Assembly: GCA_963827275.1 (NCBI GenBank)
Contig: CAWHAA010000005.1
Span: forward strand, 32,001 to 96,000
Length of the DNA: 64,000 bases
Source of the DNA: an uncultured Spirochaetota bacterium
GTDB taxonomy: Bacteria > Spirochaetota > UBA4802 > UBA5550
Reading direction: 5' to 3'
Below are positions 8,664 to 49,083 of this stretch, in pieces (position 1 is the first letter of the stretch; every line of letters starts with the position of its first letter). Position numbers and translations under genes: made by a program. The notes under the pieces are model-generated. The model was not told the DNA's origin, ran no database searches, and was given only the letters and a program-made list of their open reading frames with translations.

Positions 8664-8765
8664 CACCCCCCACATGTTTTCAACTACCATATCAGACCAT
8701 GATAATAAACGAATGGGAGGTTCGTTTAATAAAACATTATTCAATAAATTATGAATTTTTTCTTA

Positions 8766-8794
8766 TTGACTTTCGGCTCGCCTAACAGTAGCCT
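8766..8794 (+). promoter_or_regulatory. Candidate Pc-like promoter reading into the array
   Basis: TTGACT-17 bp-TAGCCT, about 30 bp upstream of the first cassette. Confidence 0.55.
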
Positions 8795-8833
8795 TAAAAA
8801 ATCATTAAGAAATTCGGACAATTTTAGTTAAAC
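8795..8833 (+). other. attI-like site, crossover G/TTAAAC at 8827/8828
   Basis: The repeated cassette sequence begins exactly at TTAAAC with no attC upstream; context AATTCGGACAATTTTAG/TTAAAC. Confidence 0.75.
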
Positions 8834-9300
8834 GCCATTTCGAGCGGCGGCCGCGGTTTTTTTGTTATAAATAAAAGAAAAAAATAGGGTTGGCTTTTCT
8901 TTCGATCATATAATAATTAAGGCAATAATCTTTTCGTTCGGTTGCAGCTTAACATTACGCGGCCGCCTCTGGGCTCGCAGGTCTCTCAGTATCGTTTTAT
9001 TGGGTCTTTCTGTTGATTCATAGATATGGGATAACCGACTGACGATATTGGTATGCAACTACTGTCGGTTGCAATACATCGCATAAAGCTTTAACTGGCA
9101 GGTCCTGCGATCCCAGTCGAAACGGCGCTTAACAAAGCATGGGGCGCTGCGCGCGGCCACGAAAATTTAGACGCTGTGGCCGCGCTTGGCCTCGCGCCTT
9201 TCCGCCAGCGGCGGTACTGATTGGCGGATGTTCTAACGCACCGCCACTGGCGGGGCGCTCGGCACACCGCCCTGCGGGCGGCGTCGCCCATGCTTGGACG
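8828..9300 (+). repeat. ORF-less structured cassette, copy 1 (variant A)
   Basis: Near-identical to the units at 9301, 10838, 11310, 15024 and 19074. Confidence 0.9.
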
Positions 9301-9306
9301 TTAAAC
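9127..9306 (+). repeat. attC-like site 1 (180 bp)
   Basis: GCTTAAC-A-AAGCATGGG...CCCATGCTT-GGAC-GTTAAAC. Confidence 0.85.
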
Positions 9307-9772
9307 GCCATTTCGAGCGGCGGCCGCGGTTTTTTTGTTATGAATAAAAGAAAAAAGAGGGTTGGCTTTTCTTTCGATCATATAATAATTAAGGCAATAG
9401 TCTTTTCGTTCGGTTGTAGCTTAACATTACGCGGCCGCCTCTGGGCTCGCAGGTCTCTCAGTATCGTTTTATTGGGTCTTTCTGTTGATTCATAGATATG
9501 GGATAACCGACTGACAATATTGGTGTGCAACTATTGTCGGTTGCACTACATCGCATAAAGCCTTAACAGACAGGTCCTGCGATCCCAGTCGAAACGGCGT
9601 TTAACAAAGCATGGGGCGCTGCGCGCGGCCACGAAAATTTAGACGCTGTGGCCGCGCTTGGCCTCGCGCCTTTCCGCCAGCGGCGGTGCTGATTGGCGGA
9701 TGTTCTAACGCACCGCCACTGGCGGGGCGCTCGGCACACCGCCCTTCGGGCGGCGTCGGCCATGCTTGGACG
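9301..9772 (+). repeat. ORF-less structured cassette, copy 2 (variant B)
   Basis: Direct repeat of 8828-9300 with diagnostic substitutions. Confidence 0.9.
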
Positions 9773-9778
9773 TTAAGC
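9599..9778 (+). repeat. attC-like site 2 (180 bp)
   Basis: GTTTAAC...GTTAAGC. Confidence 0.85.
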
Positions 9779-9891
9779 GCAATACAGCGCTGGCTTTGGG
9801 TTGGCTTTATGGTTGGTCCGGCCTCCTGCCGGCCTTTAATTATGAATTTCATTTTTAAAATATTCTTTTTCATTATTATAGGTTTTTATAT

Positions 9892-10605
9892 ATGAAAAGA
9901 TTAATTACTATTCTATCAATAACTTTCACTTTAATTTATTGTGAAAAATCTTATTCTAATTATTATCTGGGTCCTTATATATCTGTAGCTGTAGGTCAAA
10001 TGGCTCATACACAATCTTCAATTCGAGAAGTTTATGATAATTATATTTTTGGCGGAGGTGGAATCTTCCAAACATCGATTTATCGACGAGGTTTATATAA
10101 TTATAGATTAAATTTTTGTTTCGAAAAGATTTATATACCACATACGACCAAACTTGGAACTGATTTTAGAAATACAATTCGAGGAAATTTAATTAATACA
10201 ATTGCTTATTCAATTTATAAAAAAAGGAATTATAATTTATGGATCGGGCCGCAAATCGGTCTTCATATTTTATGGGGCGACAATTATCTAAGTGATAATA
10301 AATATAATAAATTGAATACGATCCTCATTTCATCAATAATAATGAATCCTGAACTACCACTAATCATTTTACTATATTCTTCGAATAATTATGTGAAATT
10401 TACTGATTTTATTTTTAGTTTTGCTCCGGAAATTGGCATTGATATAAATGCAACAGACTTTTTAATTATATCATTGGAAAGTGGATTGAGAGTAGGTATT
10501 CATTTGCCAACAAATAAAATATCTAGCTCTGTTACATTGTATAGATTTGAAGGATTTTTTAATCTTTCATTTTTATTTAGAATTAACAAAGAAGAAAATA
10601 CATAA
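9892..10605 (+). CDS. Cassette-encoded hypothetical exported protein, possibly an outer-membrane beta-barrel
   Basis: Signal-peptide-like N-terminus; alternating aromatic/hydrophobic strands; single ORF in cassette 9773-10837. Confidence 0.65.
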   Translation: MKRLITILSITFTLIYCEKSYSNYYLGPYISVAVGQMAHTQSSIREVYDNYIFGGGGIFQTSIYRRGLYNYRLNFCFEKIYIPHTTKLGTDFRNTIRGNLINTIAYSIYKKRNYNLWIGPQIGLHILWGDNYLSDNKYNKLNTILISSIIMNPELPLIILLYSSNNYVKFTDFIFSFAPEIGIDINATDFLIISLESGLRVGIHLPTNKISSSVTLYRFEGFFNLSFLFRINKEENT

Positions 10606-10663
10606 TTTTATTATGCCGCCGCCGTCCTGACGGCGGCAACTTGAACTGGGAGCGCTGTACTGC

Positions 10664-10843
10664 GCTTAACAAAGCATGGGACGCTGCGCGCGGCCACGAA
10701 AATTTAGACGCTGTGGCCGCGCTTGGCCTCGCGCCTTTCCGCCAGCGGCGGTGCCGATTGGCGGATGTTCTAACGCACCGCCACTGGCGGGGCGCTCGGC
10801 ACACCGCCCTTCGGGCGGCGTCGCCCATGCTTGAACGTTAAAC
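10664..10843 (+). repeat. attC-like site 3 (180 bp)
   Basis: GCTTAAC...GTTAAAC. Confidence 0.85.
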
Positions 10844-11309
10844 GCCATTTCGAGCGGCGGCCGCGGTTTTTTTGTTATAAATAAAAGAAAAAAGAGGGTT
10901 GGCTTTTCTTTCGATCATATAATAATTAAGGCAATAGTCTTTTCGTTCGGTTGCAGCTTAACATTACGCGGCCGCCTCTGGGCTCGCAGGTCTCTCAGTA
11001 TCGTTTTATTGGGTCTTTCTGTTGATTCATAGATATGGGATAACCGACTGACGATATTGGTATGCAACTACTGTCGGTTGCAATACATCGCATAAAGCTT
11101 TAACTGGCAGGTCCTGCGATCCCAGTCGAAACGGCGCTTAACAAAGCATGGGGCGCTGCGCGCGGCCACGAAAATTTAGACGCTGTGGCCGCGCTTGGCC
11201 TCGCGCCTTTCCGCCAGCGGCGGTACTGATTGGCGGATGTTCTAACGCACCGCCACTGGCGGGGCGCTCGGCACACCGCCCTTCGGGCGGCGTCGCCCAT
11301 GCTTGGACG
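10838..11309 (+). repeat. ORF-less structured cassette, copy 3 (variant A); its attC-like site spans 11136-11315
   Basis: Direct repeat of 8828-9300. Confidence 0.9.
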
Positions 11310-11781
11310 TTAAACGCCATTTCGAGCGGCGGCCGCGGTTTTTTTGTTATGAATAAAAGAAAAAAGAGGGTTGGCTTTTCTTTCGATCATATAATAATTA
11401 AGGCAATAGTCTTTTCGTTCGGTTGTAGCTTAACATTACGCGGCCGCCTCTGGGCTCGCAGGTCTCTCAGTATCGTTTTATTAAGTCTTTCTGTTGATTC
11501 ATAGATATGGGATAACCGACTGACAATATTGGTGTGCAACTATTGTCGGTTGCACTACATCGCATAAAGCCTTAACAGACAGGTCCTGCGATCCCAGTCG
11601 AAACGGCGTTTAACAAAGCATGGGGCGCTGCGCGCGGCCACGAATATTTAGACGCTGTGGCCGCGCTTGGCCTCGCGCCTTTCCGCCAGTGGCGGTACTG
11701 ATTGGCGGATGTTCTAACGCACCGCCACTGGCGGGGCGCTCGGCACACCGCCCTTCGGGCGGCGTCGCCCATGCTTGGACG
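11310..11781 (+). repeat. ORF-less structured cassette, copy 4 (variant B); its attC-like site spans 11608-11787
   Basis: Direct repeat of 9301-9772. Confidence 0.9.
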
Positions 11782-12491
11782 TTAAGCGCAATACAGCGGC
11801 TTTATTTTTTTGCTTTATTCTGGGGCCGGCCTCCTGCCGGACTATTCTTAAAGAAAATGCTTTTTTATTAATGTCCTGGAAGTCTATATCCACCTTTTCC
11901 ACTCAATTCTTGTAAGAGTGTAGAGATATTTTTTTATTATTAAAGAAATACTAAATAAAATATTCTGAAAAATAGCTCAATCTGTTCTCTTTTAGCTAAG
12001 ACGCAAGAGTAGTCTTTTTGATTTATTTTTTTATGTTTTTCTTGACCAGTATTCTCATGTGCATATATATAATTCTGTATTAAAATACTTTTTAAATATT
12101 AATACAAAAGAAAATGTTTGGACATTTGTTCGCCGTGAATTTATTGTACTGAAACGTAAGAGCATACTTTTTTAATTTATTATTTTCTTGGCTTATTCTT
12201 AACCGTAATAGTTATCTATTTTTTACATACTTCAGTATAAATATTATTTTTTTGCTGTAAGTGTATTTGCCGCCGCCGTCCTGACGGCGGCAACTTGAAC
12301 TGATAGCGCTGTACTGCGCTTAACAAAGCATGGGGCGCTGCGCGCGGCCACGAAAATTTAGACGCTGTGGCCGCGCTTGGCCTCGCGCCTTTCCGCCAGT
12401 GGCGGTGCCGATTGGCGGATGTTCTATCGCACCGCCGCTGGCGGGGCGCTCGGCACACCGCCCTTCGGGCGGCGTCGCCCATGCTTGGACG
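11782..12491 (+). other. Second type of ORF-less cassette (AT-rich core); its attC-like site spans 12318-12497
   Basis: No credible ORF; ends are shared with cassette 9773-10837. Confidence 0.8.
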
Positions 12492-12524
12492 TTAGGCGCA
12501 ATTTGGTTGATATTTAATAATATT

Positions 12525-13034
12525 ATGACAAATTTATTATCCTTAAAAGAAATAGAAAGCGAAGTAAATAATCTTGCAAGATTGATAAATGCACCAAAAG
12601 ATTATTTGCCAACATTTGGCTATACAAATGATTTTGCACAACCTCATATTGAGATAAATTATAATCAGTATCACTATGTAATTGTCGAGCGTGGCCAAGA
12701 ATTTGAAAGAAAATCAACGGAAAATATTCATGAACTTTTATATTGGATATTTGAATCAATAACATTTAATATGGCTATTGATTATGAATTTAAAAATAGA
12801 ATTGAAGATCTTGATTCTAGACGTATTGCTTTTAAAAAACAAGAAGAATTATTAAATCTACTTAATCCAGATTGGAAGAATACATTAGAAAATAAACATA
12901 AATTAATATTAGAAAAACATCCTTTTGATGACTTATCTGGTTTAAGGGCAACATATTGTAGGGAGTTGAGAGAAAAAGGATATTGTGAAGATGATATAAC
13001 TAAAAAGGCTTATGAAAAATATCCTTTGCCTTGA
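12525..13034 (+). CDS. Imm63-like immunity protein (cassette)
   Basis: PHIE...YHYVIVERGQEFERKST...ELLYWIF...DSRRIAF pattern, recognised from memory. Confidence 0.7.
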   Translation: MTNLLSLKEIESEVNNLARLINAPKDYLPTFGYTNDFAQPHIEINYNQYHYVIVERGQEFERKSTENIHELLYWIFESITFNMAIDYEFKNRIEDLDSRRIAFKKQEELLNLLNPDWKNTLENKHKLILEKHPFDDLSGLRATYCRELREKGYCEDDITKKAYEKYPLP

Positions 13035-13046
13035 CAACCAAACTGC

Positions 13047-13220
13047 GCATAACAAAGCATAGCCGCTCCGCTCCTCGCTCGCTAAGGCTCGCTGCGGTGC
13101 TCGGCCTCGCGCTTATCCCGCCAGCTGCGGCGGTGATTTGGGGAGGGTTTTGAGCCGCCTTGCTGGCGGGGCGCTCGGCAACCTGGCTTCGCCAGGTTCG
13201 GCTATGCTGAGACGTTAGGC
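13047..13220 (+). repeat. attC-like site (174 bp)
   Basis: GCATAAC-AA-AGCATAGCCG...CGGCTATGCT-GAGAC-GTTAGGC. Confidence 0.85.
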
Positions 13221-13298
13221 GCCATTTCTGGCTGGCTTTTTTATTTCCTCGCCATCCATGGCTCGGAATTATTATCATATTTTATCAGGAGGACATTT

Positions 13299-13883
13299 AT
13301 GGGTCTAATTGTTCATTCATTAGAAAACATACCTCAATCTTCAAATAGGGATTATATAATATATTTACTCGATTATGGCTGGAGTGAACCAATTGGAAAA
13401 GCTCTTAATGATAATTTTGATCATATGGCTAATATTGCAGCAAATAATCGAGCTGTAATTATTAAGGGAACTAGATTAGGTGATTTTGCAAACGAAGTTT
13501 TTTCTTGGCATCATATAAATAATATTGATGCCGATGACATTCTTCCTGCATTATTAATTACCAATAAACATCCCGTATATTTTAAAGATTATGAGTTTGG
13601 ATATCGCCAAAAAAAGGGATTATATAGAGACACCAAAGATGATGATTTAAAATTAATTCTAATACCTTTTAAAAAGTTTTGTAAAACAACAACTGAGGTA
13701 ATTTCTTTAATCGAAAAAGTATTTTCTGATATAATTAACAAAAAGGATTTATCAAATTTTTCTGTAGCAAAAGAAATGAAAAAAGGAATATGTTCTGCAA
13801 TTGTAGACGCTATAATACTTGAGCCTAATTTTTCCGGAATTGGTTTTAGTTTTAATAAATTCAGGAGTTATTTAAAAACTTAA
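13299..13883 (+). CDS. Cassette-encoded hypothetical protein
   Basis: 194-aa ORF with a strong RBS (AGGAGG); family not recognised. Confidence 0.8.
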   Translation: MGLIVHSLENIPQSSNRDYIIYLLDYGWSEPIGKALNDNFDHMANIAANNRAVIIKGTRLGDFANEVFSWHHINNIDADDILPALLITNKHPVYFKDYEFGYRQKKGLYRDTKDDDLKLILIPFKKFCKTTTEVISLIEKVFSDIINKKDLSNFSVAKEMKKGICSAIVDAIILEPNFSGIGFSFNKFRSYLKT

Positions 13884-13958
13884 AATTAACTTATTTGTAA
13901 TTACTCAAAAGTACATCCATGTACTTTTGAACTTTTTCGTTTTAATGCCAGAAACGGC

Positions 13959-14206
13959 GCCTAACAAAGCATAACCGCTCCGCTCCTCGCCCACTTCGCG
14001 GGCTGCGGTGCTCGGCCTCGCGCCTGGCCGCCTCCGTCGGTGCCGATTTGGGGATGATCTAAAGCACCGACTCCGGCGGCGCGCTCGGCTCATTTTTCGG
14101 CGCTTCTTAGTTTCAAATAAATTAGTACTTGCAAAATTGCTTACAACAGGATAGATAACTTTTCGCGGCCAGGCCTCAAAACGACGGTTATGCTTGGACG
14201 TTAAGC
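13959..14206 (+). repeat. attC-like site (248 bp)
   Basis: GCCTAAC-A-AAGCATAACCG...CGGTTATGCTT-GGAC-GTTAAGC. Confidence 0.8.
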
Positions 14207-14241
14207 GACATTGCCATTTTTTTATGTATTTGGAGTTATGA

Positions 14242-14863
14242 ATGATTCCATCAGAAAGACACCCAATTGTTTCATTCTTCCTTGATGCTTATTTCATTGA
14301 AACATTTTTAAATCTTATAAAAAAATTATATCTGCCGAACGAGTATTTTAATATATCTATAAGAATAATATTTAATGATAATATTCATATTTTACCATGC
14401 TTACTATTATAAAAAAACAAAATTCCGCACTATTGGCGAACTTATTACTGGAACCTATATAGATAGTGATGGTAATAAATATTTTCTTAATCCATTTTAT
14501 TTAAATCGTTTTATTTTATGGGTTCCAATGTTTCTCACCTTTGTTGGTTTAAAATCTGTAAATATAATTCAAATAAATGACTTAAAATTAATTTCATCAT
14601 TAATATTTATTGGCATTTTATTATTAACATATTTTTCATACATCATGTTAAATAGAGGATATGTTATCGGTTTAATTTTATTATTAATAATTTATGCTTC
14701 TTTAATTTTTAATGTAATATACAATAAAGGATTTATTATAAAATTATTTGATTGGGAATTAATAATAGAATTCACATTATTATTGTTATTTATAACAATA
14801 ATAATAGCATATTGGATTATAAGAATGAATAAATTTCAAAATATAAATGGCAACGTCGCTTAA
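14242..14863 (+). CDS. Cassette membrane protein, RDD-like N-terminus; apparent frameshift near 14373
   Basis: MIPSERHPIVSFFLDAYF from 14242 after RBS GGAG, continuing in another frame as YYYKKTKFRTIGELITG plus four TM segments; stop codon lies within the attC R'' box. Confidence 0.6.
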
Positions 14864-15029
14864 CACGGCGTTCACGCTCCGCTCCTCGGGGCTTCGCCCC
14901 TGCGGTGCTCGGCTTCGCGCCTCGCCCGCCGGTTTCGGCGGTTTTCGGAGGAGTGTTCTGAGCCGTTTCACCGGCGGGGGCGCTCAGCAACCTGGCTTCG
15001 CCAGGTTCGTAAACGCCGGAACGTTAAAC
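14858..15029 (+). repeat. attC-like site (172 bp)
   Basis: GCTTAAC-A-CGGCGTTCACG...CGTAAACGCCG-GAAC-GTTAAAC. Confidence 0.85.
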
Positions 15030-15495
15030 GCCATTTCGAGCGGCGGCCGCGGTTTTTTTGTTATAAATAAAAGAAAAAAGAGGGTTGGCTTTTCTTTCGA
15101 TCATATAATAATTAAGGCAATAGTCTTTTCGTTCGGTTGCAGCTTAACATTACGCGGCCGCCTCTGGGCTCGCAGGTCTCTCAGTATCGTTTTTTTGGGT
15201 CTTTCTGTTGATTCATAGATATGGGATAACCGACTGACGATATTGGTATGCAACTACTGTCGGTTGCAATACATCGCATAAAGCTTTAACTGGCAGGTCC
15301 TGCGATCCCAGTCGAAACGGCGCTTAACAAAGCATGGGGCGCTGCGCGCGGCCACGAAAATTTAGACGCTGTGGCCGCGCTTGGCCTCGCGCCTTTCCGC
15401 CAGCGGCGGTACTGATTGGCGGATGTTCTAACGCACCGCCACTGGCGGGGCGCTCGGCACACCGCCCTGCGGGCGGCGTCGCCCATGCTTGGACG
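15024..15495 (+). repeat. ORF-less structured cassette, copy 5 (variant A); its attC-like site spans 15322-15501
   Basis: Direct repeat of 8828-9300. Confidence 0.9.
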
Positions 15496-15547
15496 TTAGG
15501 CGAAAAAACGCCAAAATATAAGTCGAGGTAAAAAGGAAATTTATATT

Positions 15548-17989
15548 ATGGAAATTTATGCTATACTATTAAAATTATTTGATTTTCTTAATAAAATGTC
15601 TAATATTTCCTTTACAACATTTATCGCATTCATAGGAGCTATTACTGGTTCATTAACTTTTTATTATACTTTTTTAAAAAGATTTAATCCAAAATGTATA
15701 ATTAGTGGTGATATTATTTTTCATTGCAACAAAGGTTCTTTAAAAAATAATGATGCCTATTTAAAAGAAATAGAGTTAAATATTACATTCAGCAATGAAT
15801 CTAATAAGTATGGGTTGATTGAAGACCTACTAGTTCGTATATATTCAACGGATGGGATCACAAGAGAAACTGATCCTACCCCACAATTCGACCAGTTTCA
15901 AGTTTAGTTTTCTCGATCACTAACATATCATTATATTGTTTTGGCGTCATCCCTTTTAATCTCTTTTGAGGTCTTTCCTCGTTATATTCTCTCCACCATT
16001 CATGAATAATCTCTCTGGCTGTACTCAGTTTTTTAAAATAATGAGCACTGAGACATTCATTCCGAAATGTTCCATTAAAACTTTCTATGTGGCAATTATC
16101 TGATGGCTTGCCGGGCCTTGTGAAAATTATTTTAATCCCCTTTTCATAGCACCAACGGTCGAGTTCCTGGCTTCTAAATTCAGGACCATTGTCACATTGT
16201 ATAAATTCTGGATACCCAAAGGATTCACATGCTCTTTCAAGTAGTTCAGAAACATCCTTACCCGTTATTGAAAATCCAGTATGAATAAGTGGCGAATGAT
16301 TCGTTACAGGGTCAATCGCTGTCAGTATTTTGAGATTCTTTTTAAAGCCCACCGAGTCATGAATGAAATCTAAAGCCCATATGACGCCAGGTTCATTCGG
16401 CAATTCAACGGGTGATCGTTCTAATGAAGCTATCTTTTTCCGACGTTTCCGCGCTCGTAATTGCAGCCCATGCTCTTTATATATCCTTTCTGTACGCTTA
16501 TGATTAATCAGTATCCCTTTTTGCCTCAGCTTGAGCTGTATCATTCCGCAGCCATATTTTGAATTTTTTGAAAGGATCGAATCTATCTCTCCAATGATTC
16601 GTGCGTCATCATTTGGCTGCGGACTATATAAAAATGTAGAACGAGCCATGCAAGAAACCTTGCATGATCGTCGTATCGAAAACCCGAAGCTACTCATCAG
16701 ATAGCTTACTGCCTCTCTCTTCACTCCGGGTCGCAGAACTTTTTTATGATCTCCTTCTGTGCCATGTTATCCAGGGATAAATCGGCAACCAGTTTCTTTA
16801 ATCGTGTATTTTCATCTTCAAGTAGTCGCAATCGAACAATTTCCTGAGAGCTCATATCTCCATATTTGCGCTTCCAGATATAAAAGGAGTTCTCACTAAT
16901 GCCGTGTTCTCGGGCGATATCCTTTACCTTTTTTCCCGCCTTATGCTCACCAAGGATCCTGACAATCTGCTCTTCTGAGAATCGTTTTTTCATTTTAACC
17001 TCATTAGTCTTGATTATTTATCGGTTAAAACTAAACTATCTCGTGGTACAAATTTAAGGGGTGGGATCAAAACCACTCCTTATTTTATAAGTCTTTTCAA
17101 GGATCATGATAATCCTGATAAATTGCCATTTTACCCTATCGTATTAATCCCTAAAAGTTTTCGTTCATCTACATTTATCTTTATCGATCGAATTGCCGCA
17201 TCAGAAAAAATAATAAATATTGATCGTGATTATAATCTTCAATTATTCATTAAATATAAAAAAGAAAATAATTGGGTTTTAATTGATGATATAACTCTAT
17301 ATTGTAAATTAAAAGATAATACCAATCAATTATTTGATTTAATATTTATGTCTATAAATCAACAGATTATTCGCGATAAGGCTAAAGACTATATTGGGAA
17401 AATTCCAAAACCTTTTTACAGAGGAATAATACATCAATGGTTTAAAATTATATTTGAGGAAGTTAAGTTTTTCATTATAAGGACAATTTATAAATTGTTG
17501 CATTTCATACAATGTATTTACCATCTTATTCTCTCTGGAATTAATTGGCTTGTATCTTTTATTGTAATAAATAACCTATTAATATTTTTATCTTCAAAGA
17601 CTAAGGAAATTAAAACAAGTAGCCAAATTGGTCCCGATGAGCAAACACTGGATTATATAAAAAAACTACACAAAGTAATTTTAAAATTAGTTACTAAAAT
17701 TAATAATAGATCAGAAAGCAAAATTGATATTCAATACAAAGGCAAAGATATTTTATTAAGTCGCAATAATTTTGAAATTATTATTTATGCACCTGGCGTT
17801 AACCATATAATGGCACATGATAAAGAAAGTCATGAATATAAGCTTTTTCTTGAATTTGCGATGGTTGTAAATAGGATTAATCATAAATATTGGACATATG
17901 ATGATAAATTTATATCGATTACGAGAATAGCATTAAAAATTATTGATAGTTTTAGCTTAATGACTCAATATAAAATAATTCCTGAATAA
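15548..17989 (+). pseudogene. Cassette hypothetical membrane protein interrupted by IS3
   Basis: Removing 15871-17073 rejoins ...TDGITRET-TPYFISLFKDHDNPDKLPFYP... in frame. Confidence 0.8.
15871..17069 (-). mobile_element. IS3-family element, copy 1 (1199 bp; orfA 16721-16993, orfB 15876-16724)
   Basis: IRs TGATCCTACCCC/GGGGTGGGATCA; AAAC target duplication; orfA MKKRFSEEQI; orfB DDE motifs WALDF, DNGPEF, IESFNG; A6G slippery site at the orfA end. Confidence 0.95.
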
Positions 17990-18002
17990 TTGACGTTTCT
18001 TC

Positions 18003-18125
18003 GCCTAACAAAGCATAACCGCTGCGCGCGGCCACAAGAAATGAAGCTGTGGCCGTGCTCGGCCTGCGGCACACCGCGCCAAGGGAGGAAGCTGGCGCGG
18101 CGTCGGTTATGCTTGGACGTTAAGC
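18003..18125 (+). repeat. attC-like site (123 bp)
   Basis: GCCTAAC-A-AAGCATAACCG...CGGTTATGCTT-GGAC-GTTAAGC. Confidence 0.85.
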
Positions 18126-18189
18126 GCCATGGAAAAAGAGCTTTTTGCCCGCCATCCGTGGCGGGCTTTTTAAGAAATATATTTTTTTC

Positions 18190-18218
18190 TTGACATGTAG
18201 TCATTATATGACTACTTT
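18190..18218 (+). promoter_or_regulatory. TA cassette promoter with palindromic operator
   Basis: TTGACA-17 bp-TACTTT overlapped by GTAGTCAT-tat-ATGACTAC. Confidence 0.75.
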
Positions 18219-18223
18219 GATTT

Positions 18224-18487
18224 ATGTTCTCAGTTAAAATATCAAAAAAGGCTATTAAGGGCATTCATAAAATGCCCATTAAAATTCAAGAAAGAATGAA
18301 TGTCCTTCTTAAAGATCTACGTGCAAAAGGACCCATGCGATATGAATGGCCAAATTTTAGTAAATTAGATGAAAATCTGTATCATTGTCATTTAGCTCAC
18401 AAATGGATCGCATGCTGGAAATATGAAAAACATACAATCATTATAGAGGTTTATTATGCAGGCTCACGTGAAAACGCCCCATATTAA
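18224..18487 (+). CDS. RelE-like toxin (toxin-first TA cassette 1)
   Basis: 87-aa basic protein ending IIIEVYYAGSRENAPY, upstream of an XRE-HTH gene. Confidence 0.7.
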   Translation: MFSVKISKKAIKGIHKMPIKIQERMNVLLKDLRAKGPMRYEWPNFSKLDENLYHCHLAHKWIACWKYEKHTIIIEVYYAGSRENAPY

Positions 18488-18824
18488 AATTAATATTAAA
18501 GGTGAAATTCATCCCAAAGTTCTTTCTGTTTTAAAAGAAGTCTATGGGAAAAAAGTTAAACTTATCAAGGAAAATGATGAAGAATTAGTTGATGCCTTTG
18601 AAACTGAATGGTTTAAAAATATTGATGCCACCATGTCTCCCGGCAAAAACATGAGGATATATCGAGAAATTCATAAAATGACCCAAGAAGAACTAGGTAA
18701 CAAATTAGGTGGCATTTCTAAACAAAATATTTCTCATATGGAACGAGGTATTAGACCTATTAGTAAAAAAACTGCTAAATCATTGGCTTCAATTTTTAAA
18801 GTTCCGGCAGACCGTTTTATTTGA
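18456..18824 (+). CDS. XRE-family HTH antitoxin (HigA-like)
   Basis: MTQEELGNKLGGISKQNISHMERGIRPIS. Confidence 0.8.
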   Translation: MQAHVKTPHIKINIKGEIHPKVLSVLKEVYGKKVKLIKENDEELVDAFETEWFKNIDATMSPGKNMRIYREIHKMTQEELGNKLGGISKQNISHMERGIRPISKKTAKSLASIFKVPADRFI

Positions 18825-18900
18825 CTATTTTTAAGATATTGCCCTGCCCTCGCCCGTCCTGGACTCGGGCAGTAAATACTTATACTATTTTTTCCACGGC

Positions 18901-19079
18901 GCTTAACACGGCGTTCACGCTCCGCTCCTCGGCGGCTTATTGGCGCCTGCGGTGCTCGGCTTCGCGCCTTGCCCGCCGGTTTCGGCGGTTTTCAGAGGAG
19001 TGTTTTGAGCCGCCTCACCGGCGGGCGCGCTCAGCAACCTGGCCTGCGGCCAGGTTCGTAAACGCCGGAGACGTTAAAC
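18901..19079 (+). repeat. attC-like site (179 bp)
   Basis: GCTTAAC-A-CGGCGTTCACG...CGTAAACGCCG-GAGAC-GTTAAAC. Confidence 0.85.
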
Positions 19080-20482
19080 GCCATTTCGAGCGGCGGCCGC
19101 GGTTTTTTTGTTATGAATAAAAGAAAATAAATAAGGTTGGCTTTTCTTTCGATCATATAATAATTAAGGTGTAATAGACTCGATTTAATCTGACACTCTT
19201 CCGATAAATGGAGCAGAAAATGCTCTGAATAATTATACGGAGGAGTACATGACAACAGAACAGAAAGTCATCAGGAACAAAATGGGGTTATTAAACCTCG
19301 CAGAGCAGATTGGGAATGTCAAAAAAGCATGTCACATTATGGGATATTCCCGAGACAGTTACTACCGGCTAAAGGAACTTTATGATACTGGTGGTGAAGA
19401 AGCGTTAAAAGAAATCAGCAGAAAAAAAGCTAATATAAAGAATCGTGTTGATCCAAGTGTTGAAACTGCAGTTAACAGCATTGCAATTGAGTATCCCGCA
19501 TTTGGACAGGTTCGGGCTTCTAATGAACTGAGAAAACAGGGGATATTTGTCTCACCTACCGGAGTAAGAAGCATATGGCTCCGTAATGATCTTGAAACCA
19601 TGAAGAAGCGGCTCAAGGCACTTGAGGCCAAGGTCGCTCAAGATGGAATCATTCTCACGGAATCACAGCTTGCCGCATTAGAGAAAGCCAAAGAGGAAAA
19701 GGAAGCTCATGGTGAGATTGTATCTGAACATCCTGGTTATCTGGGTTCGCAGGACACAATGTATGTAGGAACGGTCAAAGGTGTTGGCCGGATATACCAG
19801 CAGACTTTTATAGACACGTATTGTAAGGTGGCTTTTGCAAAGTTATACAATATGAAAACACCAATTACCTCTGCCGACATATTGAACGACAGGGTTATAC
19901 CGTTTTATGAAAACAGCAGCATTAAGCTGATCCGAGTATTGACGGATCGTGGTACCGAATATTGCGGGAAAATGGAAAGTCATGACTATGAACTGTTTCT
20001 TTCGATTGAGGATATTGAGCACACAAAGACAAAGACGCGGCATCCTCAAACAAATGGAATATGCGAAAGATTTCATCGAACCATTCAAGATGAATTTTAT
20101 CGCATAGCATTTAGAAAGAAAATTTACAACACTCTTGATGAACTTCAGAAGGATCTTGACATATGGATTGTTCAATATAATAATGAGAGACCGCATAGTG
20201 GAAAATATTGTTATGGCAAAACACCGATAGATACGTTCAAGGATTCGTTAGTGCTTGCAAAAGAAAAACTGCTAAACTTTAACTGACAGGCAGTTTGGAA
20301 GTGATTGGTGAGTGTCAGATGAAGTTCAGAGTTTTACAATTAAGGCAATAATCTTTTCGTTCGGTTGCAGCTTAACATTACGCGGCCGCCTCTGGGCTCG
20401 CAGGTCTCTCAGTATCGTTTTATTGGGTCTTTCTGTTGATTCATAGATATGGGATAACCGACTGACGATATTGGTATGCAAC
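19074..20482 (+). repeat. ORF-less structured cassette, copy 6, interrupted by IS481 and truncated by IS3
   Basis: Repeat sequence is present at 19074-19169 and 20339-20482. Confidence 0.85.
19170..20338 (+). mobile_element. IS481-family element (transposase 19249-20286)
   Basis: TGT...ACA ends with imperfect IRs sharing ATCTGACACT; ATTAAGG duplicated on both sides; TDRGTEY and TNGICERFHRT motifs. Confidence 0.93.
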
Positions 20483-21681
20483 TGATCCTACCCCACAATT
20501 CGACCAGTTTCAAGTTTAGTTTTCTCGATCACTAACATATCATTATATTGTTTTGGCGTCATCCCTTTTAATCTCTTTTGAGGTCTTTCCTCGTTATATT
20601 CTCTCCACCATTCATGAATAATCTCTCTGGCTGTACTCAGTTTTTTAAAATAATGAGCACTGAGACATTCATTCCGAAATGTTCCATTAAAACTTTCTAT
20701 GTGGCAATTATCTGATGGCTTGCCGGGCCTTGTGAAAATTATTTTAATCCCCTTTTCATAGCACCAACGGTCGAGTTCCTGGCTTCTAAATTCAGGACCA
20801 TTGTCACATTGTATAAATTCTGGATACCCAAAGGATTCACATGCTCTTTCAAGTAGTTCAGAAACATCCTTACCCGTTATTGAAAATCCAGTATGAATAA
20901 GTGGCGAATGATTCGTTACAGGGTCAATCGCTGTCAGTATTTTGAGATTCTTTTTAAAGCCCACCGAGTCATGAATGAAATCTAAAGCCCATATGACGCC
21001 AGGTTCATTCGGCAATTCAACGGGTGATCGTTCTAATGAAGCTATCTTTTTCCGACGTTTCCGCGCTCGTAATTGCAGCCCATGCTCTTTATATATCCTT
21101 TCTGTACGCTTATGATTAATCAGTATCCCTTTTTGCCTCAGCTTGAGCTGTATCATTCCGCAGCCATATTTTGAATTTTTTGAAAGGATCGAATCTATCT
21201 CTCCAATGATTCGTGCGTCATCATTTGGCTGCGGACTATATAAAAATGTAGAACGAGCCATGCAAGAAACCTTGCATGATCGTCGTATCGAAAACCCGAA
21301 GCTACTCATCAGATAGCTTACTGCCTCTCTCTTCACTCCGGGTCGCAGAACTTTTTTATGATCTCCTTCTGTGCCATGTTATCCAGGGATAAATCGGCAA
21401 CCAGTTTCTTTAATCGTGTATTTTCATCTTCAAGTAGTCGCAATCGAACAATTTCCTGAGAGCTCATATCTCCATATTTGCGCTTCCAGATATAAAAGGA
21501 GTTCTCACTAATGCCGTGTTCTCGGGCGATATCCTTTACCTTTTTTCCCGCCTTATGCTCACCAAGGATCCTGACAATCTGCTCTTCTGAGAATCGTTTT
21601 TTCATTTTAACCTCATTAGTCTTGATTATTTATCGGTTAAAACTAAACTATCTCGTGGTACAAATTTAAGGGGTGGGATCA
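20483..21681 (-). mobile_element. IS3-family element, copy 2 (encodes proteins identical to copy 1)
   Basis: Same IRs and identical orfA/orfB translations; flanks come from two different cassettes. Confidence 0.95.
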
Positions 21682-21689
21682 AAACCCAT

Positions 21690-22142
21690 ATGAAAATACT
21701 TATAAAACTCCTGCCATTTATATTAGGTGGTGCCTTAGTTATTCAATCTTCACTAAATAAATCAATTGCCCAATCAAAAGGCTTAAGCACAGCATTAGTC
21801 ATAAATGGATTAATTGTTGTATTCTGTTCATTAATAATATTTATTTTATCATATTTTTTCCCACATCACTTCTCGGAAATTATTACTTATAACAACAATA
21901 ATTTGATATTTAAATGGTGGTATATAATTCCTGGTTTTTTAGGATTTTGTGCATTATTAATTCTTCCAATTGGAATTATGAAAATTGGTGCCTTACCAAT
22001 TTTTCTTGGAGTAATTGCTGGGCAAATAATCGTAAGTATTATATATGATTTTTATTTTGAAAATATTTCAATTAATTTAATTCGTGTATCAGGAGCCTTA
22101 TTAACTTTTATTGGAGCCTTTTTGGTAGTTTGGAAAAGATGA
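21690..22142 (+). CDS. DMT-superfamily (YdcZ/DUF606-like) small transporter (cassette)
   Basis: Five TM segments; QSSLN, WWYIIPGFLG, GQIIVSIIYD, RVSGALL. Confidence 0.75.
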   Translation: MKILIKLLPFILGGALVIQSSLNKSIAQSKGLSTALVINGLIVVFCSLIIFILSYFFPHHFSEIITYNNNNLIFKWWYIIPGFLGFCALLILPIGIMKIGALPIFLGVIAGQIIVSIIYDFYFENISINLIRVSGALLTFIGAFLVVWKR

Positions 22143-22317
22143 ATAATTATTCAAATCACAAGTAATAACCAACAAATAACTAATAACTTGACAAAATATG
22201 TATTTATTATTATAGAATATATAAATTACATGCAAAATATTATTTTTTTTTACCTTAATGTTGCTTTTCGCCATCCATGGCTCAAAGCAAATATGCCTTA
22301 ATGTGTATGGCCACTTC

Positions 22318-22455
22318 ACCTAACAAAGCATAGCCGCTGCGCGCGGGAATACCGCGCTTGGCCTCCGCGCCAAGATATGAAGACGGCGCTACGGCACATT
22401 TTCACCTCCGCGAGTACGCTCCGGTGAAAACGTCGGCTATGCTTGGACGTTATAC
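22318..22455 (+). repeat. attC-like site (138 bp)
   Basis: ACCTAAC-A-AAGCATAGCCG...CGGCTATGCTT-GGAC-GTTATAC. Confidence 0.85.
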
Positions 22456-22515
22456 GCCATGGCAAACTTTTCGCCTGCCATCCATGGCGGGCGTGGTATT
22501 TCATAATAAAATATG

Positions 22516-22544
22516 TTGACAAGTAACCCTTATTTGGTTACATT
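22516..22544 (+). promoter_or_regulatory. TA cassette promoter with palindromic operator
   Basis: TTGACA-17 bp-TACATT overlapped by GTAACC-cttattt-GGTTAC. Confidence 0.75.
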
Positions 22545-22549
22545 GCATT

Positions 22550-22813
22550 ATGTATAAAGTAGTAATTACAAAAAGCACCCTCAAAGGCATTGAAAAAATG
22601 CCTAAATTTTCACAATTAGCAATGGGGAACTTAGTTGATGATCTTAAGGAGTGTGGCCCTATTCAAAAACACTGGGCTAATTTTAGTAAAATTGGAAAGA
22701 ATAAATTCCATTGCCATTTATCATATAAATGGGTTGCATGCTGGGAATTTTATGAAAATAATATATTAATTGAGGTTTATTATGCAGGTTCACGTGAAAA
22801 CGCCCCGTATTAA
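22550..22813 (+). CDS. RelE-like toxin (TA cassette 2)
   Basis: Paralogue of 18224-18487 with the same EVYYAGSRENAPY end. Confidence 0.7.
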   Translation: MYKVVITKSTLKGIEKMPKFSQLAMGNLVDDLKECGPIQKHWANFSKIGKNKFHCHLSYKWVACWEFYENNILIEVYYAGSRENAPY

Positions 22814-23147
22814 AATTGATATTAAAGGCGAAATTTCTAAAAAACACCTTTCTTTGCTGAAAAAAGAATATGGTGAAAATCTTCATTTAATTAATAAAGA
22901 TGATAAGTCTATTGATGTCTTTAAAACTGAATGGTACAAAAATATTAAATCTCAAATGACCCCTGGGACAAATTTAAAAGTTTATAGAATAAATAAAGGA
23001 TTAACCCAAGCTCAGTTAGGGGAATTACTTGGTGGCATTCCTAAACAGCATATATCAAATATGGAAAACGGGAGAAGGCCCATTAGTTTAAAAATGGCAA
23101 AAATTTTAGCCAGATTCTTTAAGGTATCAGTTGATAAATTTGTTTAA
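22782..23147 (+). CDS. XRE-family HTH antitoxin
   Basis: LTQAQLGELLGGIPKQHISNMENGRRPIS; paralogue of 18456-18824. Confidence 0.8.
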   Translation: MQVHVKTPRIKIDIKGEISKKHLSLLKKEYGENLHLINKDDKSIDVFKTEWYKNIKSQMTPGTNLKVYRINKGLTQAQLGELLGGIPKQHISNMENGRRPISLKMAKILARFFKVSVDKFV

Positions 23148-23222
23148 TTTTTTATTACCTTTGGCCCGCCTCCGCACGTCCTGTGCTTCGGCGGTAGAGC
23201 TTTTTTACTTCATTGCCACGGC

Positions 23223-23528
23223 GTATAACACGGCGTTCACGCTCCGCTCCTCGGCGGACTTGGGCCGCCTGCGGTGCGCTGATCAGGATGATCGAGTGTC
23301 GAGCCGCAACAGGATGTTGCGAAAAGGCTCGACCTCGGCCTCCCGCCTTTCCGCCTCCGTCGGTGCCGATTCGGGGATAATCTAAAGCACCGACTCCGGC
23401 GGGGCGCTCGGCTCATTTTTCGGCGCTTTTAAGTTTCAAATAAATTCTTCTTGCAAAAATGCTTATAACAGGCTAAATAACTTTTAGCAGCCAGGCCTCA
23501 AAACGACGGTTATGCTTGAACGCTATAT
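23223..23528 (+). repeat. Chimeric, probably inactive attC-like site (306 bp)
   Basis: GTATAAC-A-CGGCGTTCACG left arm paired with a CGGTTATGCTT-GAAC-GCTATAT right arm. Confidence 0.75.
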
Positions 23529-23599
23529 GCAATTGCCCCATTTTATATAGAATAGAAAAATATAGTATAAATATTACAAAAAAATTGTGCATATAAATT

Positions 23600-24355
23600 A
23601 TGTCTGTAGATTATAACCAACTATCAAAACAATATAAAAACTATAGAAGACCTGACACTCGGATTTTAAGGCAAATACAATATTATCTTCAAAATGCTCA
23701 ATGTATTTTAAATGTTGGAGCTGGTATTGGATCCTATGAGCCTGTAGATAGTAAAGTAGTCGCCATCGAACCATCTTTTGAAATGATTTCAAAAAGAGAT
23801 AATTCAAAAGCACTTTTGGTACAAGCAATTGCCGAAAAGCTGCCTTTTAAAAATAATATCTTTGATTGCTCCATGGCAATTTTAACAATACATCATTGGT
23901 CAAATGCAATTTCTGGTCTTAAAGAAATGATCAGAGTTACAAAATATAAAATTGTCTTATTTACTTGGATTGGATATGGCAATAACTTTTGGCTAGAGAA
24001 TTATATACCCGAAATTATTGGAATTGATATAAAATTATTTCCAACAATAGATGAACTTAAACGAATACTTGGAAATGTCATAGTTGAAATTGTTGAAATA
24101 CCTTATGATTGTACAGATGGATTCATGTGTGCCTATTGGAGAAGACCGGAAATGTATTTGGATCCAAATGTGCGGAAGGCCATATCTACTTTCTCACGCA
24201 TACCCGAAAATCCCGAGGGACTAAATAAACTACGAAAGGATATTGAAAGTGGCGAATGGTATAATAAGTACAGCTATTTGCTTGATAAAGAAACTATTGA
24301 TTTAGGATATAGATTAGTTATATCTGAAAACAAAGAATGGGGCAACTGCACATAA
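23600..24355 (+). CDS. Class I SAM-dependent methyltransferase (cassette)
   Basis: LNVGAGIGSYE, AEKLPF, LTIHHW; stop codon lies in the R'' box. Confidence 0.88.
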   Translation: MSVDYNQLSKQYKNYRRPDTRILRQIQYYLQNAQCILNVGAGIGSYEPVDSKVVAIEPSFEMISKRDNSKALLVQAIAEKLPFKNNIFDCSMAILTIHHWSNAISGLKEMIRVTKYKIVLFTWIGYGNNFWLENYIPEIIGIDIKLFPTIDELKRILGNVIVEIVEIPYDCTDGFMCAYWRRPEMYLDPNVRKAISTFSRIPENPEGLNKLRKDIESGEWYNKYSYLLDKETIDLGYRLVISENKEWGNCT

Positions 24356-24474
24356 CAAAGCACACCCGCTGCGCGCGGCCACAAGAAATGAAGCTGTGGC
24401 CGTGCTCGGCCTGCGGCACACCGCGCCTAAGGGAGGAAGACGGGCCCGGCGGCGGCTATGCTGGAACGTTGTTC
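24350..24474 (+). repeat. attC-like site (125 bp, partly degenerate)
   Basis: ACATAAC...GGAAC-GTTGTTC; core similar to the 18003-18125 site. Confidence 0.75.
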
Positions 24475-24515
24475 GAAACCCGGCGGTTTTGAAATTTGAG
24501 AGGAACTCTTTCATA

Positions 24516-25406
24516 ATGAAAAACTTCAAGTTTAAGAAAATCGATGCTTTTACAGATAAGTCATCTCATGGCAATCCGGCAGCTGGCATTTATTTAGATA
24601 ATCTTAATGATATTTCAGACATGGAAATGCTAACTATAGCCAGTGAACTTAAAGGTTTTGTCAGCGAAGTTGTATTTCTATTTCCAGAGAAGGATGGATA
24701 TTTTTTAAAATACTATTCTTCTGAATGTGAAGTTGAATTTTGCGGCCATGGAACTATTGCAATAATGTTTGATCTGATTAAAAATAGCCCGAATCTTTTA
24801 GATGAAAAAGTCATCAATATTAGAGTTAGAAACGAAAATCTTAAAATCTATAATCAAATTAATAATAATAACTCAATTTTTATAACTGCCCCAAACCCGA
24901 CGTATCATTCTTGTAATATTAATCATAATGATCTAATTTCTTGTCTAAATATTTCTTTAGATACAATTAATAGCAATCTGCCAATTGATATAATAAATGC
25001 CGGACTGAATACTCTAATTGTACCAATTATAAATCTTAATAAATGCCTTAATGTGAAGCCTGACCAAGAAGTTCTAAAATATTTCTGCCTGGACAATACT
25101 ATTGATATAATACATATCTTCACAAATGAAGTATCGAAAGGAACCAATAATTATCGAACAAGAGTTTTTGCTCCAAAGTATGGGTATTTGGAAGATCCGG
25201 CAACTGGTTCTGGCAATTCTGCCTTTGGGTATTATTTATTGAAAAATAACCTATGGGCTGGACAATTACTGAAAATTGAACAAAATAAAGAATATGAAAT
25301 GTCTAATTTGGTGAAATTAAATACGGTAATGTTAGATAATAAACTACGTGTTTTATTTGGCGGCTCCGCAACACTAAAAATAGATGGAGCATATACTTTA
25401 TATTAA
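24516..25406 (+). CDS. PhzF-family isomerase (cassette)
   Basis: IDAFT...GNPA, EVEFCGHGTIA, EDPATGSGN. Confidence 0.9.
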   Translation: MKNFKFKKIDAFTDKSSHGNPAAGIYLDNLNDISDMEMLTIASELKGFVSEVVFLFPEKDGYFLKYYSSECEVEFCGHGTIAIMFDLIKNSPNLLDEKVINIRVRNENLKIYNQINNNNSIFITAPNPTYHSCNINHNDLISCLNISLDTINSNLPIDIINAGLNTLIVPIINLNKCLNVKPDQEVLKYFCLDNTIDIIHIFTNEVSKGTNNYRTRVFAPKYGYLEDPATGSGNSAFGYYLLKNNLWAGQLLKIEQNKEYEMSNLVKLNTVMLDNKLRVLFGGSATLKIDGAYTLY

Positions 25407-25425
25407 GGAATTATCGCCGATATTC

Positions 25426-25550
25426 GCACAACATAGCATAGCCGATCCGCTCCCCGGCGGGCTTGGGCCTCCTGCGGTGCGCTGATCAGGGTGATCGAGT
25501 GTCGAGCCGCAACAGAAGGGTGCAGAAAGGCTCAACCTCGGCACTCGCGC
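25426..25550 (+). repeat. Truncated attC-like site (left half only)
   Basis: GCACAAC-ATAGCATAGCCG followed by the double-hairpin module; no matching right arm or GTT. Confidence 0.65.
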
Positions 25551-25599
25551 TTGCATCGCCATCCATGGCATCGAATAATAATAGACACGGGCCAATGTA

Positions 25600-49011: not shown

Positions 49012-49074
<63 letters not shown>

Positions 49075-49083
<9 letters not shown>

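Follow-up and report, generated by a model that had tools for sequence, protein, structure and literature searches.

An insertion-less integron-like recombinase paired with long, branched attC-like sites in a Spirochaetota family

Introduction

A 64,000-nucleotide stretch of DNA from an uncultured Spirochaetota bacterium (GTDB lineage UBA4802; UBA5550; assembly GCA_963827275.1, contig CAWHAA010000005.1, positions 32,001 to 96,000 of the forward strand), here called the window and numbered from its first letter, carries a tyrosine recombinase gene at the head of an array of gene cassettes whose bodies are separated by long, branched attC-like sites. The recombinase lacks the insertion typical of integron integrases (IntIs), and the sites lack the extrahelical bases of classical attC sites. 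We consider the locus to be probably a sedentary chromosomal integron-like platform, one whose recombinase would act on folded bottom strands without relying on recognition of extrahelical bases by an IntI insertion.

In the literature, integron recombination is defined by two things together, the IntI insertion and the extrahelical bases that it reads (Messier and Roy 2001, as cited in PMC9668308; Nivina et al. 2016, PMC5027507). Classical attC sites, as given by Nivina et al., are 57-141 bp long, have an unpaired spacer of 5-6 nt in each arm, and carry their extrahelical bases on the arm opposite the bottom-strand AAC triplet. Smyshlyaev et al. (2021, PMC8138268) state, in the portion available, that the insertion 'is not fully conserved' in an integron-like subgroup, and Ross et al. 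(2019, bioRxiv 10.1101/471110; partial text) report rAID-1 arrays in 226 of 423 Bacteroidales genomes, with an XerD-family recombinase and integron-like intergenic repeats. Insertion-less integron-like arrays are already known from these Bacteroidales; what appears to be new here is the architecture of the sites and the pairing of cassette ends around a mismatch at position 11. In the literature on domain-less integrases, on integron-like arrays and attC-like sites, and on clusters of attC sites lacking integron integrases (CALINs) in Spirochaetota, with supplements outside the search, we found no description of this site architecture.

Results

The window holds long sites with an uninterrupted stem and a lopsided spacer

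A preliminary description of the window had proposed fifteen very long attC-like sites of non-canonical geometry between 9127 and 24474. All fifteen are present at the lengths it gave, measured from the 7-mer ending in AAC to the 7-mer beginning with GTT (Table 1), and 13 of them are intact and follow the layout it had put forward, AAC-A-stem...stem-GRAC-GTT, with 7-11 uninterrupted base pairs in the proximal stem; the other two, at 23223 and 24350, are degenerate. The right spacer was said to be the longer one, and in the 13 intact sites 4-5 nt do precede GTT against 1 nt (2 nt in one site) after AAC. Equally, no single-base bulge interrupts the proximal stem in any of these 13 sites, the extra bases lying on the other arm. 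The stems that had been named (AAGCATGGG/CCCATGCTT, AGCATAGCCG/CGGCTATGCT, AAGCATAACCG/CGGTTATGCTT and CGGCGTT/AACGCCG) were recovered, and so were, by alignment, the inner hairpins GCGGCCAC/GTGGCCGC, CCGCCAGYGGCGG/CCGCCRCTGGCGG, CCGCCC/GGGCGG and AACCTGGC/GCCAGGTT. Minimum-energy folds of the window sites are three- or four-way junctions; the seven type-A copies, nearly identical to one another, fold into branched structures that are more stable as the bottom strand by 0.8-5.5 kcal/mol. The range itself held for its fifteen sites and was too narrow for the array: it overlooked the attI region with the first cassette (8826-9126), a truncated site at ~25426-25550, and a terminal site at 26498-26562, which is likely the end of the array.

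Across the 4.13-Mb genome, the pattern AAC-N1-7-mer...complement-N4-GTT matches 36 times on both strands, 11 of them within 13 kb of the array, and other spacer classes give ~25-45 matches each, scattered. A search with the left-half motif returned every array site and one further copy, on contig C4. There, a solo cassette (genome G000, contig C4, 744288-746900) consists of a low-G+C open reading frame (ORF) with family-type complementary ends and, behind it, a left half-site broken by the gene of an IS256-like transposase, an arrangement suggestive of insertion at a secondary site. The truncated site of the window continues, after AGCATAGCCG, with a module common to the 23223 site and this solo cassette.

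The same site type accompanies the recombinase in related genomes

We fetched the DNA 5' of the recombinase gene in 11 relatives and then in one more. An energy-ranked AAC/GTT scanner, which merged neighbouring sites or chose inner ATAAC/GTTAT pairs, was replaced by a stem-anchored catalogue requiring at least 7 uninterrupted pairs beside the spacer; 17 of its 79 hits had a G+C fraction below 0.5 and were dropped as chance matches within AT-rich sequence. The catalogue comprises 62 GC-rich sites from 12 loci, with 33 distinct proximal stems of 7-12 uninterrupted pairs and the extra bases on the opposite arm. Read away from the recombinase, the spacers (left, right) fall into the classes (2,4) with 21 sites, (1,5) with 18, (1,4) with 17, (2,5) and (3,5) with 2 each, and (0,6) and (3,4) with 1 each. 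The right spacer is longer in 62 of 62, and 20 of the 21 (2,4) sites come from one genome. The pairing of this recombinase with this site type recurs in all 12 of the related loci read. A less strict scan brought in further sites of the family type, which have C.A mismatches, and not one classical site.

The stems had been said to covary, and they do. When 15 shorter sites from 6 genomes are aligned, paired cells make up 97.9%, compared with 78.5% in shuffles; two-sided changes occur in 16 of 23 pairs, which 0 of 500 shuffles reach, and sliding the partners as a control leaves 25-47% paired. Measured from AAC to GTT, distinct family sites are 88-251 bp long, and those of 88-104 nt are already three-way junctions. 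Several motifs are kept across genera. The sites open with AACA and close with CGTT; between these, GCTNC follows the stem, T-GG-CTNCGNCANA occupies the middle and CGTC precedes the returning stem. Besides that CGTC, the branched distal part holds CGCTNCGC... and GCTYGGS-CTNCGSCACA, and the R box shared by family sites is NNAAC/GTTNN.

Cassette ends pair with each other, and the bottom strand folds better

A cassette opens, from G↓TT (the arrow marks the boundary), with 17-20 nt that are the reverse complement of the 17-20 nt with which it closes, up to AAC. We compared the ends of 44 distinct cassettes, taken from 7 loci: at positions 12-17 they agree in 39-44 of the cassettes, with far less agreement between non-self pairs. 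Position 11 is A at the start and G in the reverse-complemented end in all 44. Because the ends are complementary save at position 11, the R stem in an excised circle would be 17-20 bp long with one mismatch, which is A.C on the top strand and a T.G wobble on the bottom strand. At the terminal site of the window, position 11 reads, by eye, C in R'' and A in R'. Single mismatches in the distinct proximal stems lean in the same direction, 6 of 8 being A.C when read on the top strand and five of these falling at stem position 8.

The preliminary description had treated the sites as folded structures and called for a comparison of strands. With both strands folded, predicted energies favour the bottom strand in 60 of 60 distinct sites (mean difference 4.0 kcal/mol), which points to it as the folding strand, as in integrons. 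Taking the top strand as the reactive one, with the extra bases opposite its AAC, was also considered; we rejected it on account of a unit made of body plus following site, together with the bottom-strand wobbles and the energies.

The evidence for that unit comes from cassette N, a recurrent non-coding cassette. Behind its unbroken copies in the window stands a type-A site in 6 of 6 cases, and the element in front varies (attI, type A, type C). In four other metagenomes, contigs contain the sites, N (~95% identity), the IS3-type insertion sequence and one of the helix-turn-helix (HTH) pair cassettes described below, but little of the remaining cassette bodies; N is accompanied there by the beginning of a type-A site and follows other site types, and the likeness begins at 15021-15023 or at 19073, at GTT. 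Since N keeps a constant following site and a varying preceding element, the unit is body plus following site, with the presumed cut at G↓TT in the top strand and at AA↓C in the bottom strand. These matches are contigs with unknown letters at their joints and show shared modules in other contexts, not excision. Among sequencing runs the best share of words was 0.26, none reaching half or more, and coverage of the cassette ORFs was slight or absent.

The recombinase lacks the IntI insertion and carries an N-terminal domain

The recombinase ORF is open to 8744 (7542-8744), and 28 homologues begin at the methionine at 8657. The NCBIfam integron-integrase model TIGR02249 gives it 214 bits against a cut-off of 265, matching profile positions 4-179 and 229-313 only and leaving 180-228 unmatched; NF040815 ('site-specific tyrosine recombinase/integron integrase') gives 217.1 bits against a cut-off of 220. 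Relative to VchIntIA, the integrase of the Vibrio cholerae chromosomal integron, in the VchIntIA-VCR structure 2a3v, the recombinase has 17 residues in place of 55, and XerA aligns with it end to end, gap-free across the region of the insertion. The closest structural matches are the same two, 2a3v first and XerA second. Integrons are recognized in part by an IntI-specific additional domain around patch III, which this protein does not have, and the insertion is absent from 29 of 29 aligned homologues (37-84% identity). In these homologues the catalytic R255, K280, R353, H376 and Y385 are invariant and H350 nearly so, and the C-terminal SPL is kept in all 29. An N-terminal extension of ~95 aa is kept as well; AlphaFold2 predicts it to be a helical bundle (predicted local distance difference test, pLDDT, 86-95 over residues 30-98). 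In the ESM Atlas the best score for this domain was 0.87, to integrase N-terminal SAM-like clusters and DUF3440, below the level at which a match would be more than a lead.

We placed the protein in a rapid maximum-likelihood tree with 55 rows. It took in 16 of the family's 29 members, 14 IntIs above the TIGR02249 cut-off, 23 insertion-less relatives and, as the outgroup, two Xer-like proteins of the window genome; L072 was omitted for a stop codon. The IntIs form one clade (SH-like approximate likelihood ratio test, SH-aLRT, 100) and the family another (98), which stands beside a group from the Candidate Phyla Radiation (CPR; 92); the IntI and family clades are set apart from the genome's own XerC/D-like proteins (98). 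The tree leaves the order among the IntI, family and CPR groups unresolved and places Bacteroidota relatives in a different subclade. With its clade separate from that of the IntIs, the family is not a derived IntI on this tree. Judged by alignment and phylogeny, then, the recombinase is related to integron integrases and to XerA, lies outside the IntIs and is without the IntI insertion.

Matches to the recombinase at E<=1e-40 occur in 13 of 14 other genomes of the genus and in 35 of 39 of the taxonomic family, and matches that also cover the N-terminal domain in 26 of 401 genomes searched (the window genome included), many of them at contig ends. The genomes surveyed are a sample and are related to one another; by these matches, the recombinase clade is conserved across the Spirochaetota-type family of the window genome. 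Of 61 genomes of the family, 2 have a canonical IntI above the cut-off, and of 14 of the genus, 0; none was found in the window genome, which is 92% complete and has two other Xer-like genes, nor in the 13 other genomes of the genus. The insertion-less relatives and the IntI control loci were found with generic Xer/IntI peptide patterns and served only as controls and outgroups; among the matches listed from that search there was no close family member. A 7-mer scan of the loci of the other insertion-less relatives gave no consistent spacer class, and counting of 14-mer repeats detected arrays in only two of 19 such loci, L010 and L036. The repeat arrays lie 5' of insertion-less IntI-like genes, at 240-4730 in L010 (a Firmicutes metagenome-assembled genome) and at 2500-8950 in L036 (Oceanirhabdus).

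Classical sites differ mainly in their extrahelical bases

Control sites beside IntI genes (loci L067 and L069) have spacers of 2/3, 3/4 and 2/4, a helix of 5-7 bp and 1-2 left-arm bulges. One genome of the same taxonomic family as the window genome, G051 (loci L127 and L129), holds both systems, a canonical IntI with classical attC sites and an insertion-less recombinase with family sites. At its canonical locus are a site with a 3/3 spacer and three 1-nt left-arm bulges and two 55-nt sites; the locus of the family recombinase has two (1,4) sites with the position-11 A/G. The ends of the classical cassettes pair over 5-10 nt only (2 of 2 cassettes), and the long R stem with its invariant position-11 mismatch is absent from both. 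G051 is a natural test case for cross-reactivity.

Set against the published description of classical attC, 58 of the 62 catalogued sites have spacers of 1-2 against 4-5 nt rather than 5-6 nt in each arm. Extrahelical bases on the R''-L'' arm are present in classical sites and absent from the 13 intact window sites and the 62 catalogued ones. Family and window sites, at 88-306 bp, are branched even when short, and unlike classical attC they have conserved inner sequence motifs. As the classical controls have a slightly longer or equal right spacer, the family asymmetry exaggerates a classical trend and does not reverse it. The clear break from classical sites is the missing extrahelical bases. 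Their absence, the branching, the inner motifs and the long, wobble-bearing R stem are genuine differences, and they go with the type of recombinase. The preliminary description had proposed that site architecture co-evolved with the insertion-less recombinase. This holds insofar as site type follows recombinase in the window, in the 12 related loci and in the G051 contrast; as proof of co-evolution it falls short, being a correlation among relatives.

Layout and content of the array

The array (8826-26562, plus strand, ~17 cassettes counted from 8827) lies in an island of low G+C (25-45%) that extends from ~8.8 to 26.5 kb, the surrounding DNA having ~60% G+C. Each cassette consists of an AT-rich body followed by a GC-rich (54-68%) imperfect palindrome with NNNNAAC at its start and GTTNNNN at its end. 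The boundary at which the first cassette begins, 8826↓8827, lies 169 nt upstream of the recombinase start codon; its junction motif is gaaattcggacaatttta↓GTTAAACGCC, with a TTGACT box ~60 nt upstream. By eye, ~10 of 13 family loci have a ..TTCRGAYAATTNTA↓GTT junction in common, ~80-170 nt from the gene on its upstream side, and the order and orientation of recombinase, attI motif and array are kept in all 13 loci read. As in integrons, the putative attI thus adjoins the recombinase gene and the cassette boundary lies at G↓TT.

Table 1. Features of the recombinase locus and cassette array (window coordinates)
Feature	Position	Strand	Structure, basis or remark
Tyrosine recombinase	7542..8657	-	Pfam Phage_integrase and SAM_4
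attI region	8745..8829	+	first cassette begins G8826↓TT, with no site before cassette N
Cassette N, non-coding, ~300 bp	8827..9126	+	body of first cassette after attI; read directly
Further cassette N copies	9307-9598, 10844-11135, 11316-11607, 15030-15321, broken one from 19080	+	sequence reading
Type-A sites, 180 bp	9127-9306, 9599-9778, 10664-10843, 11136-11315, 11608-11787, 12318-12497, 15322-15501	+	AAC-a-AAGCATGGG...CCCATGCTT-ggac-GTT
Type-B site, 174 bp	13047-13220	+	AAC-aa-AGCATAGCCG...CGGCTATGCT-gagac-GTT
Type-F site, 248 bp	13959-14206	+	AAC-a-AAGCATAACCG...CGGTTATGCTT-ggac-GTT; AT-rich ~80-nt insert in distal part
Type-C sites, 172 and 179 bp	14858-15029 (172 bp), 18901-19079 (179 bp)	+	AAC-a-CGGCGTT(C.A mismatch)ACG...CGTAAACGCCG-gaac/gagac-GTT
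Type-D site, 123 bp	18003-18125	+	AAC-a-AAGCATAACCG...CGGTTATGCTT-ggac-GTT; three-way junction
Type-E site, 138 bp	22318-22455	+	AAC-a-AAGCATAGCCG...CGGCTATGCTT-ggac-GTT
Hybrid degenerate site, 306 bp	23223-23528	+	left arm type C, right arm type F; R' is GCT, not GTT
Degenerate type-D site, 125 bp	24350-24474	+	proximal stem with mismatches
Truncated site	~25426-25550	+	left half cgcacAAC-at-AGCATAGCCG; no right arm, no GTT
Short terminal site, 65 bp	26498-26562	+	contains CCGCTGCGCTCC
Cassette bodies	9773..26556	+	Pfam scan of 21 ORFs
Imm63 immunity protein	12525-13034		cassette; Pfam
Paralogous pairs, small protein and HTH_3 protein	18224-18824, 22550-23147		cassettes; Pfam
DMT/YdcZ protein (DMT_YdcZ)	21690-22142		cassette; Pfam
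Two methyltransferases	23600-24355, 25600-26439		cassettes; Pfam
PhzF-like protein	24396-25406		cassette; Pfam
IS3-type insertion sequence	15870..17070	-	Pfam rve, HTH_Tnp_1, rve_3; within a cassette ORF
Second IS3-type copy	~20484-21680		Pfam and sequence reading
IS481-like element	~19170-20330		interrupts an N cassette

Cassette N, counted with its variant N', is present in six intact copies and one broken by insertion sequences. It contains a GC hairpin with a T-run, followed by a TTGGCT-16-AATAAT box that faces the array. A promoter scan of N matched this box, at 3 sites against 1.8 expected, which is not significant. N could be a promoter cassette or a small-RNA cassette. Rfam has no match at E<=1 to cassette N or the array region 8700-15600, and at gathering thresholds nothing in the array and one tRNA elsewhere in the window, a null that says little because Rfam has no attC model.

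A Pfam family was found for 10 of the 16 ORFs scanned in and just past the array; several cassette ORFs have none, and the FMN_red and DNA_alkylation ORFs lie past the last site. In each paralogous pair an 87-aa ORF, without a Pfam family, overlaps a 122-125-aa HTH_3 protein, and these cassettes look like putative toxin-antitoxin pairs. The first IS3-type copy splits one cassette ORF into 15548-15907 and 17123-17989. Cassette N is not resumed past the second copy, so that a deletion or rearrangement appears to have fused N to the DMT/YdcZ cassette.

Small GC hairpins with TCCRTG-type loops lie just past cassette starts (18147-18166, 13247-13265, 22470-22492 and 25553-25572), hairpins with GTCCTG-type loops lie just before the R'' end (10616-10640, 12270-12295, 18845-18875 and 23165-23200), and similar cassette-end hairpins are seen in two related loci (L118 and L120). 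When perfect stems of 5 bp or more were required, a search of cassette ends for hairpins with TCCR or GTCCTG loops found 2 only in the array, leaving the by-eye pattern unconfirmed. A Fic/DOC family gene (6954-7349) lies just outside the platform and a tRNA gene (49012-49083) far downstream; neither is tied to the array.

Discussion

The locus shares with classical integrons a divergent tyrosine recombinase gene, an attI, mostly co-oriented and mostly single-gene cassettes and G↓TT boundaries, as well as AAC...GTT imperfect palindromes, stem covariation in place of sequence conservation, and a composition that favours folding of the bottom strand. It differs in having a recombinase without the IntI insertion and with an extra N-terminal domain. 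With rAID-1, compared with our array by description, it has in common an XerD-family recombinase without IntI features and a low-G+C array with repetitive intergenic sequences, termed 'reminiscent of integrons' in the accessible part of Ross et al. The rAID-1 genes are co-directional with and downstream of their recombinase, which lies 5' of the array, whereas here the array is divergent and starts upstream of the gene (gene on the minus strand, array on the plus strand). The rAID-1 arrays hold immunity genes, and the array here one Imm63 gene; the same part of that paper describes intergenic motifs without a folded-site geometry. The insertion-less integron-like recombinases of PMC8138268 come, in the portion available, without described cassette arrays or sites, and the Spirochaetota-type family adds the N-terminal domain. 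For archaea, the available portions of Ghaly et al. (PMC9668308, PMC8352920) report IntIs that carry the additional domain, the phylogeny having kept only IntIs with a complete one.

In the mechanism we propose, two monomers of the recombinase would sit on the folded bottom strand, one at the R arm and the other at the proximal stem. Cleavage would fall at AA↓C, directly 5' of a 3-4-nt bulge that may pre-bend the central region, and the cassette would leave as a circle and re-enter at attI, as in integrons. Because both the IntI insertion and the extrahelical bases are absent, strand choice would not depend on the one reading the other; it could come from the 3-4-nt bulge, the position-11 wobble in the R arm, and the general folding bias of G.T over A.C. 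The conserved motifs beside the stem, and perhaps the N-terminal domain, may stand in for the contacts that the IntI insertion would have made.

Several points weigh against this account. The roles that it gives to the bulge, the wobble and the N-terminal domain are inferred. A recombination event was not seen in the sequencing-run contigs, which have unknown letters at the joints between sites. The rule of at least 7 pairs biases the catalogue against bulged sites, and one family array does contain a classical-looking 76-bp site with a left-arm bulge (locus L120 of genome G328, 3812-3885). The relatives are not independent, so that the counts overstate the support. Classical controls are few, namely the L067 and L069 sites, of which three distinct ones were read in detail, and three in L127, and some of them share the direction of the spacer asymmetry. 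Finally, three insertion sequences and the hybrid, truncated and degenerate sites mean that parts of the array may be frozen. The 76-bp site of L120 has a spacer of ~5/7 and one left-arm bulge, and its loop contains the family motif CCGCTGCGCTCC.

What else could such an array be? Xer enzymes resolve chromosome dimers at a single duplex dif site; the gene here stands at the head of a cassette array. The recombinase has the fold and catalytic residues of XerA, XerC and XerD and aligns end to end with XerA-type enzymes, which use duplex sites. The sites could accordingly be read as duplex or cruciform in a dif-like reaction at the GTT core, with the stems serving termination, insulation or mRNA stability; conservation of sequence motifs and not of structure alone fits such a reading, and GC-rich hairpins at gene ends could terminate transcription. 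We regard this as unlikely, although it is the strongest of the competing explanations. The 33 versions of the proximal stem, always complementary, offer no fixed left arm to a duplex reader; covariation of cassette ends over 17-20 nt would be useless in a duplex reaction; and the mismatches are G.T on one strand and A.C on the other, with every one of the 60 sites folding better as the bottom strand. That strand is antisense to most cassette genes, whereas terminators would need better folding of the sense strand. Still less probable is that the repeats are structured elements of the repetitive extragenic palindromic (REP) or miniature inverted-repeat transposable element (MITE) kind in a foreign AT-rich island. 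Their high G+C, palindromic form and repetition, with seven copies nearly identical, fit that reading, but their boundaries keep to a fixed G↓TT next to the recombinase and a conserved attI, the two ends of a cassette pair specifically, one and the same cassette stands behind different sites in different samples, and outside the array the genome holds only the one further left half in the solo cassette. We give this explanation the least credence of all.

Two other explanations would keep the array closer to known integrons. CALINs are common in Bacteria and Archaea according to the available part of Ghaly et al. (2022, PMC9668308), and the array might be one, served in trans by a canonical IntI while the neighbouring recombinase has another job; the genome is incomplete enough for such a gene to be missing, and two genomes of the taxonomic family do have one. 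This seems improbable to us, given that no IntI above the cut-off was found in the genus, that recombinase, attI motif and array keep their arrangement in 13 loci, and that the canonical IntI of G051 has its own array with classical sites. Alternatively, this could be an ordinary integron whose normal attC sites were read in a shifted register and whose integrase recently lost its insertion or suffers from an assembly artefact. By manual count the RYYYAAC and GTTRRRY cores each fit 12 of the 15 window sites, the divergent integrase, attI and cassettes form the classical layout, and the classical controls likewise have a slightly longer right spacer. Against this, the insertion is missing from every homologue in a clade outside the IntIs, no register yields left-arm single-base bulges in the 13 intact window sites, and just 3 of the 15 sites (123, 125 and 138 bp) fall within 57-141 bp; we judge this explanation very improbable, a little more so than a CALIN.

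We therefore return to an integron-like platform acting on folded bottom strands as the probable nature of the locus. More tentatively, and with rather less confidence than we have in that platform, the family may represent a second class of integron, in which a lineage that never had the IntI insertion recombines folded single strands and chooses the strand by the bulge and the T.G wobble, possibly read by the N-terminal domain. If this were true, recombination of single-strand hairpins would be older or more evolvable than the IntI insertion, and a whole clade of cassette platforms would have been overlooked by standard integron finders. The covarying stems, the one-sided wobble bias and the invariant R-arm mismatch are clear site signatures of single-strand folding that can be put to the test, and they bear on the origin of integron integrases from Xer-like enzymes and on the minimal features needed for strand choice in hairpins. 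In the clade as a whole, cassette arrays are kept with neither the IntI insertion nor extrahelical bases. Tools that define integrons by the insertion would label such arrays integrase-less or miss them, so that cassette diversity in these phyla is probably under-counted.

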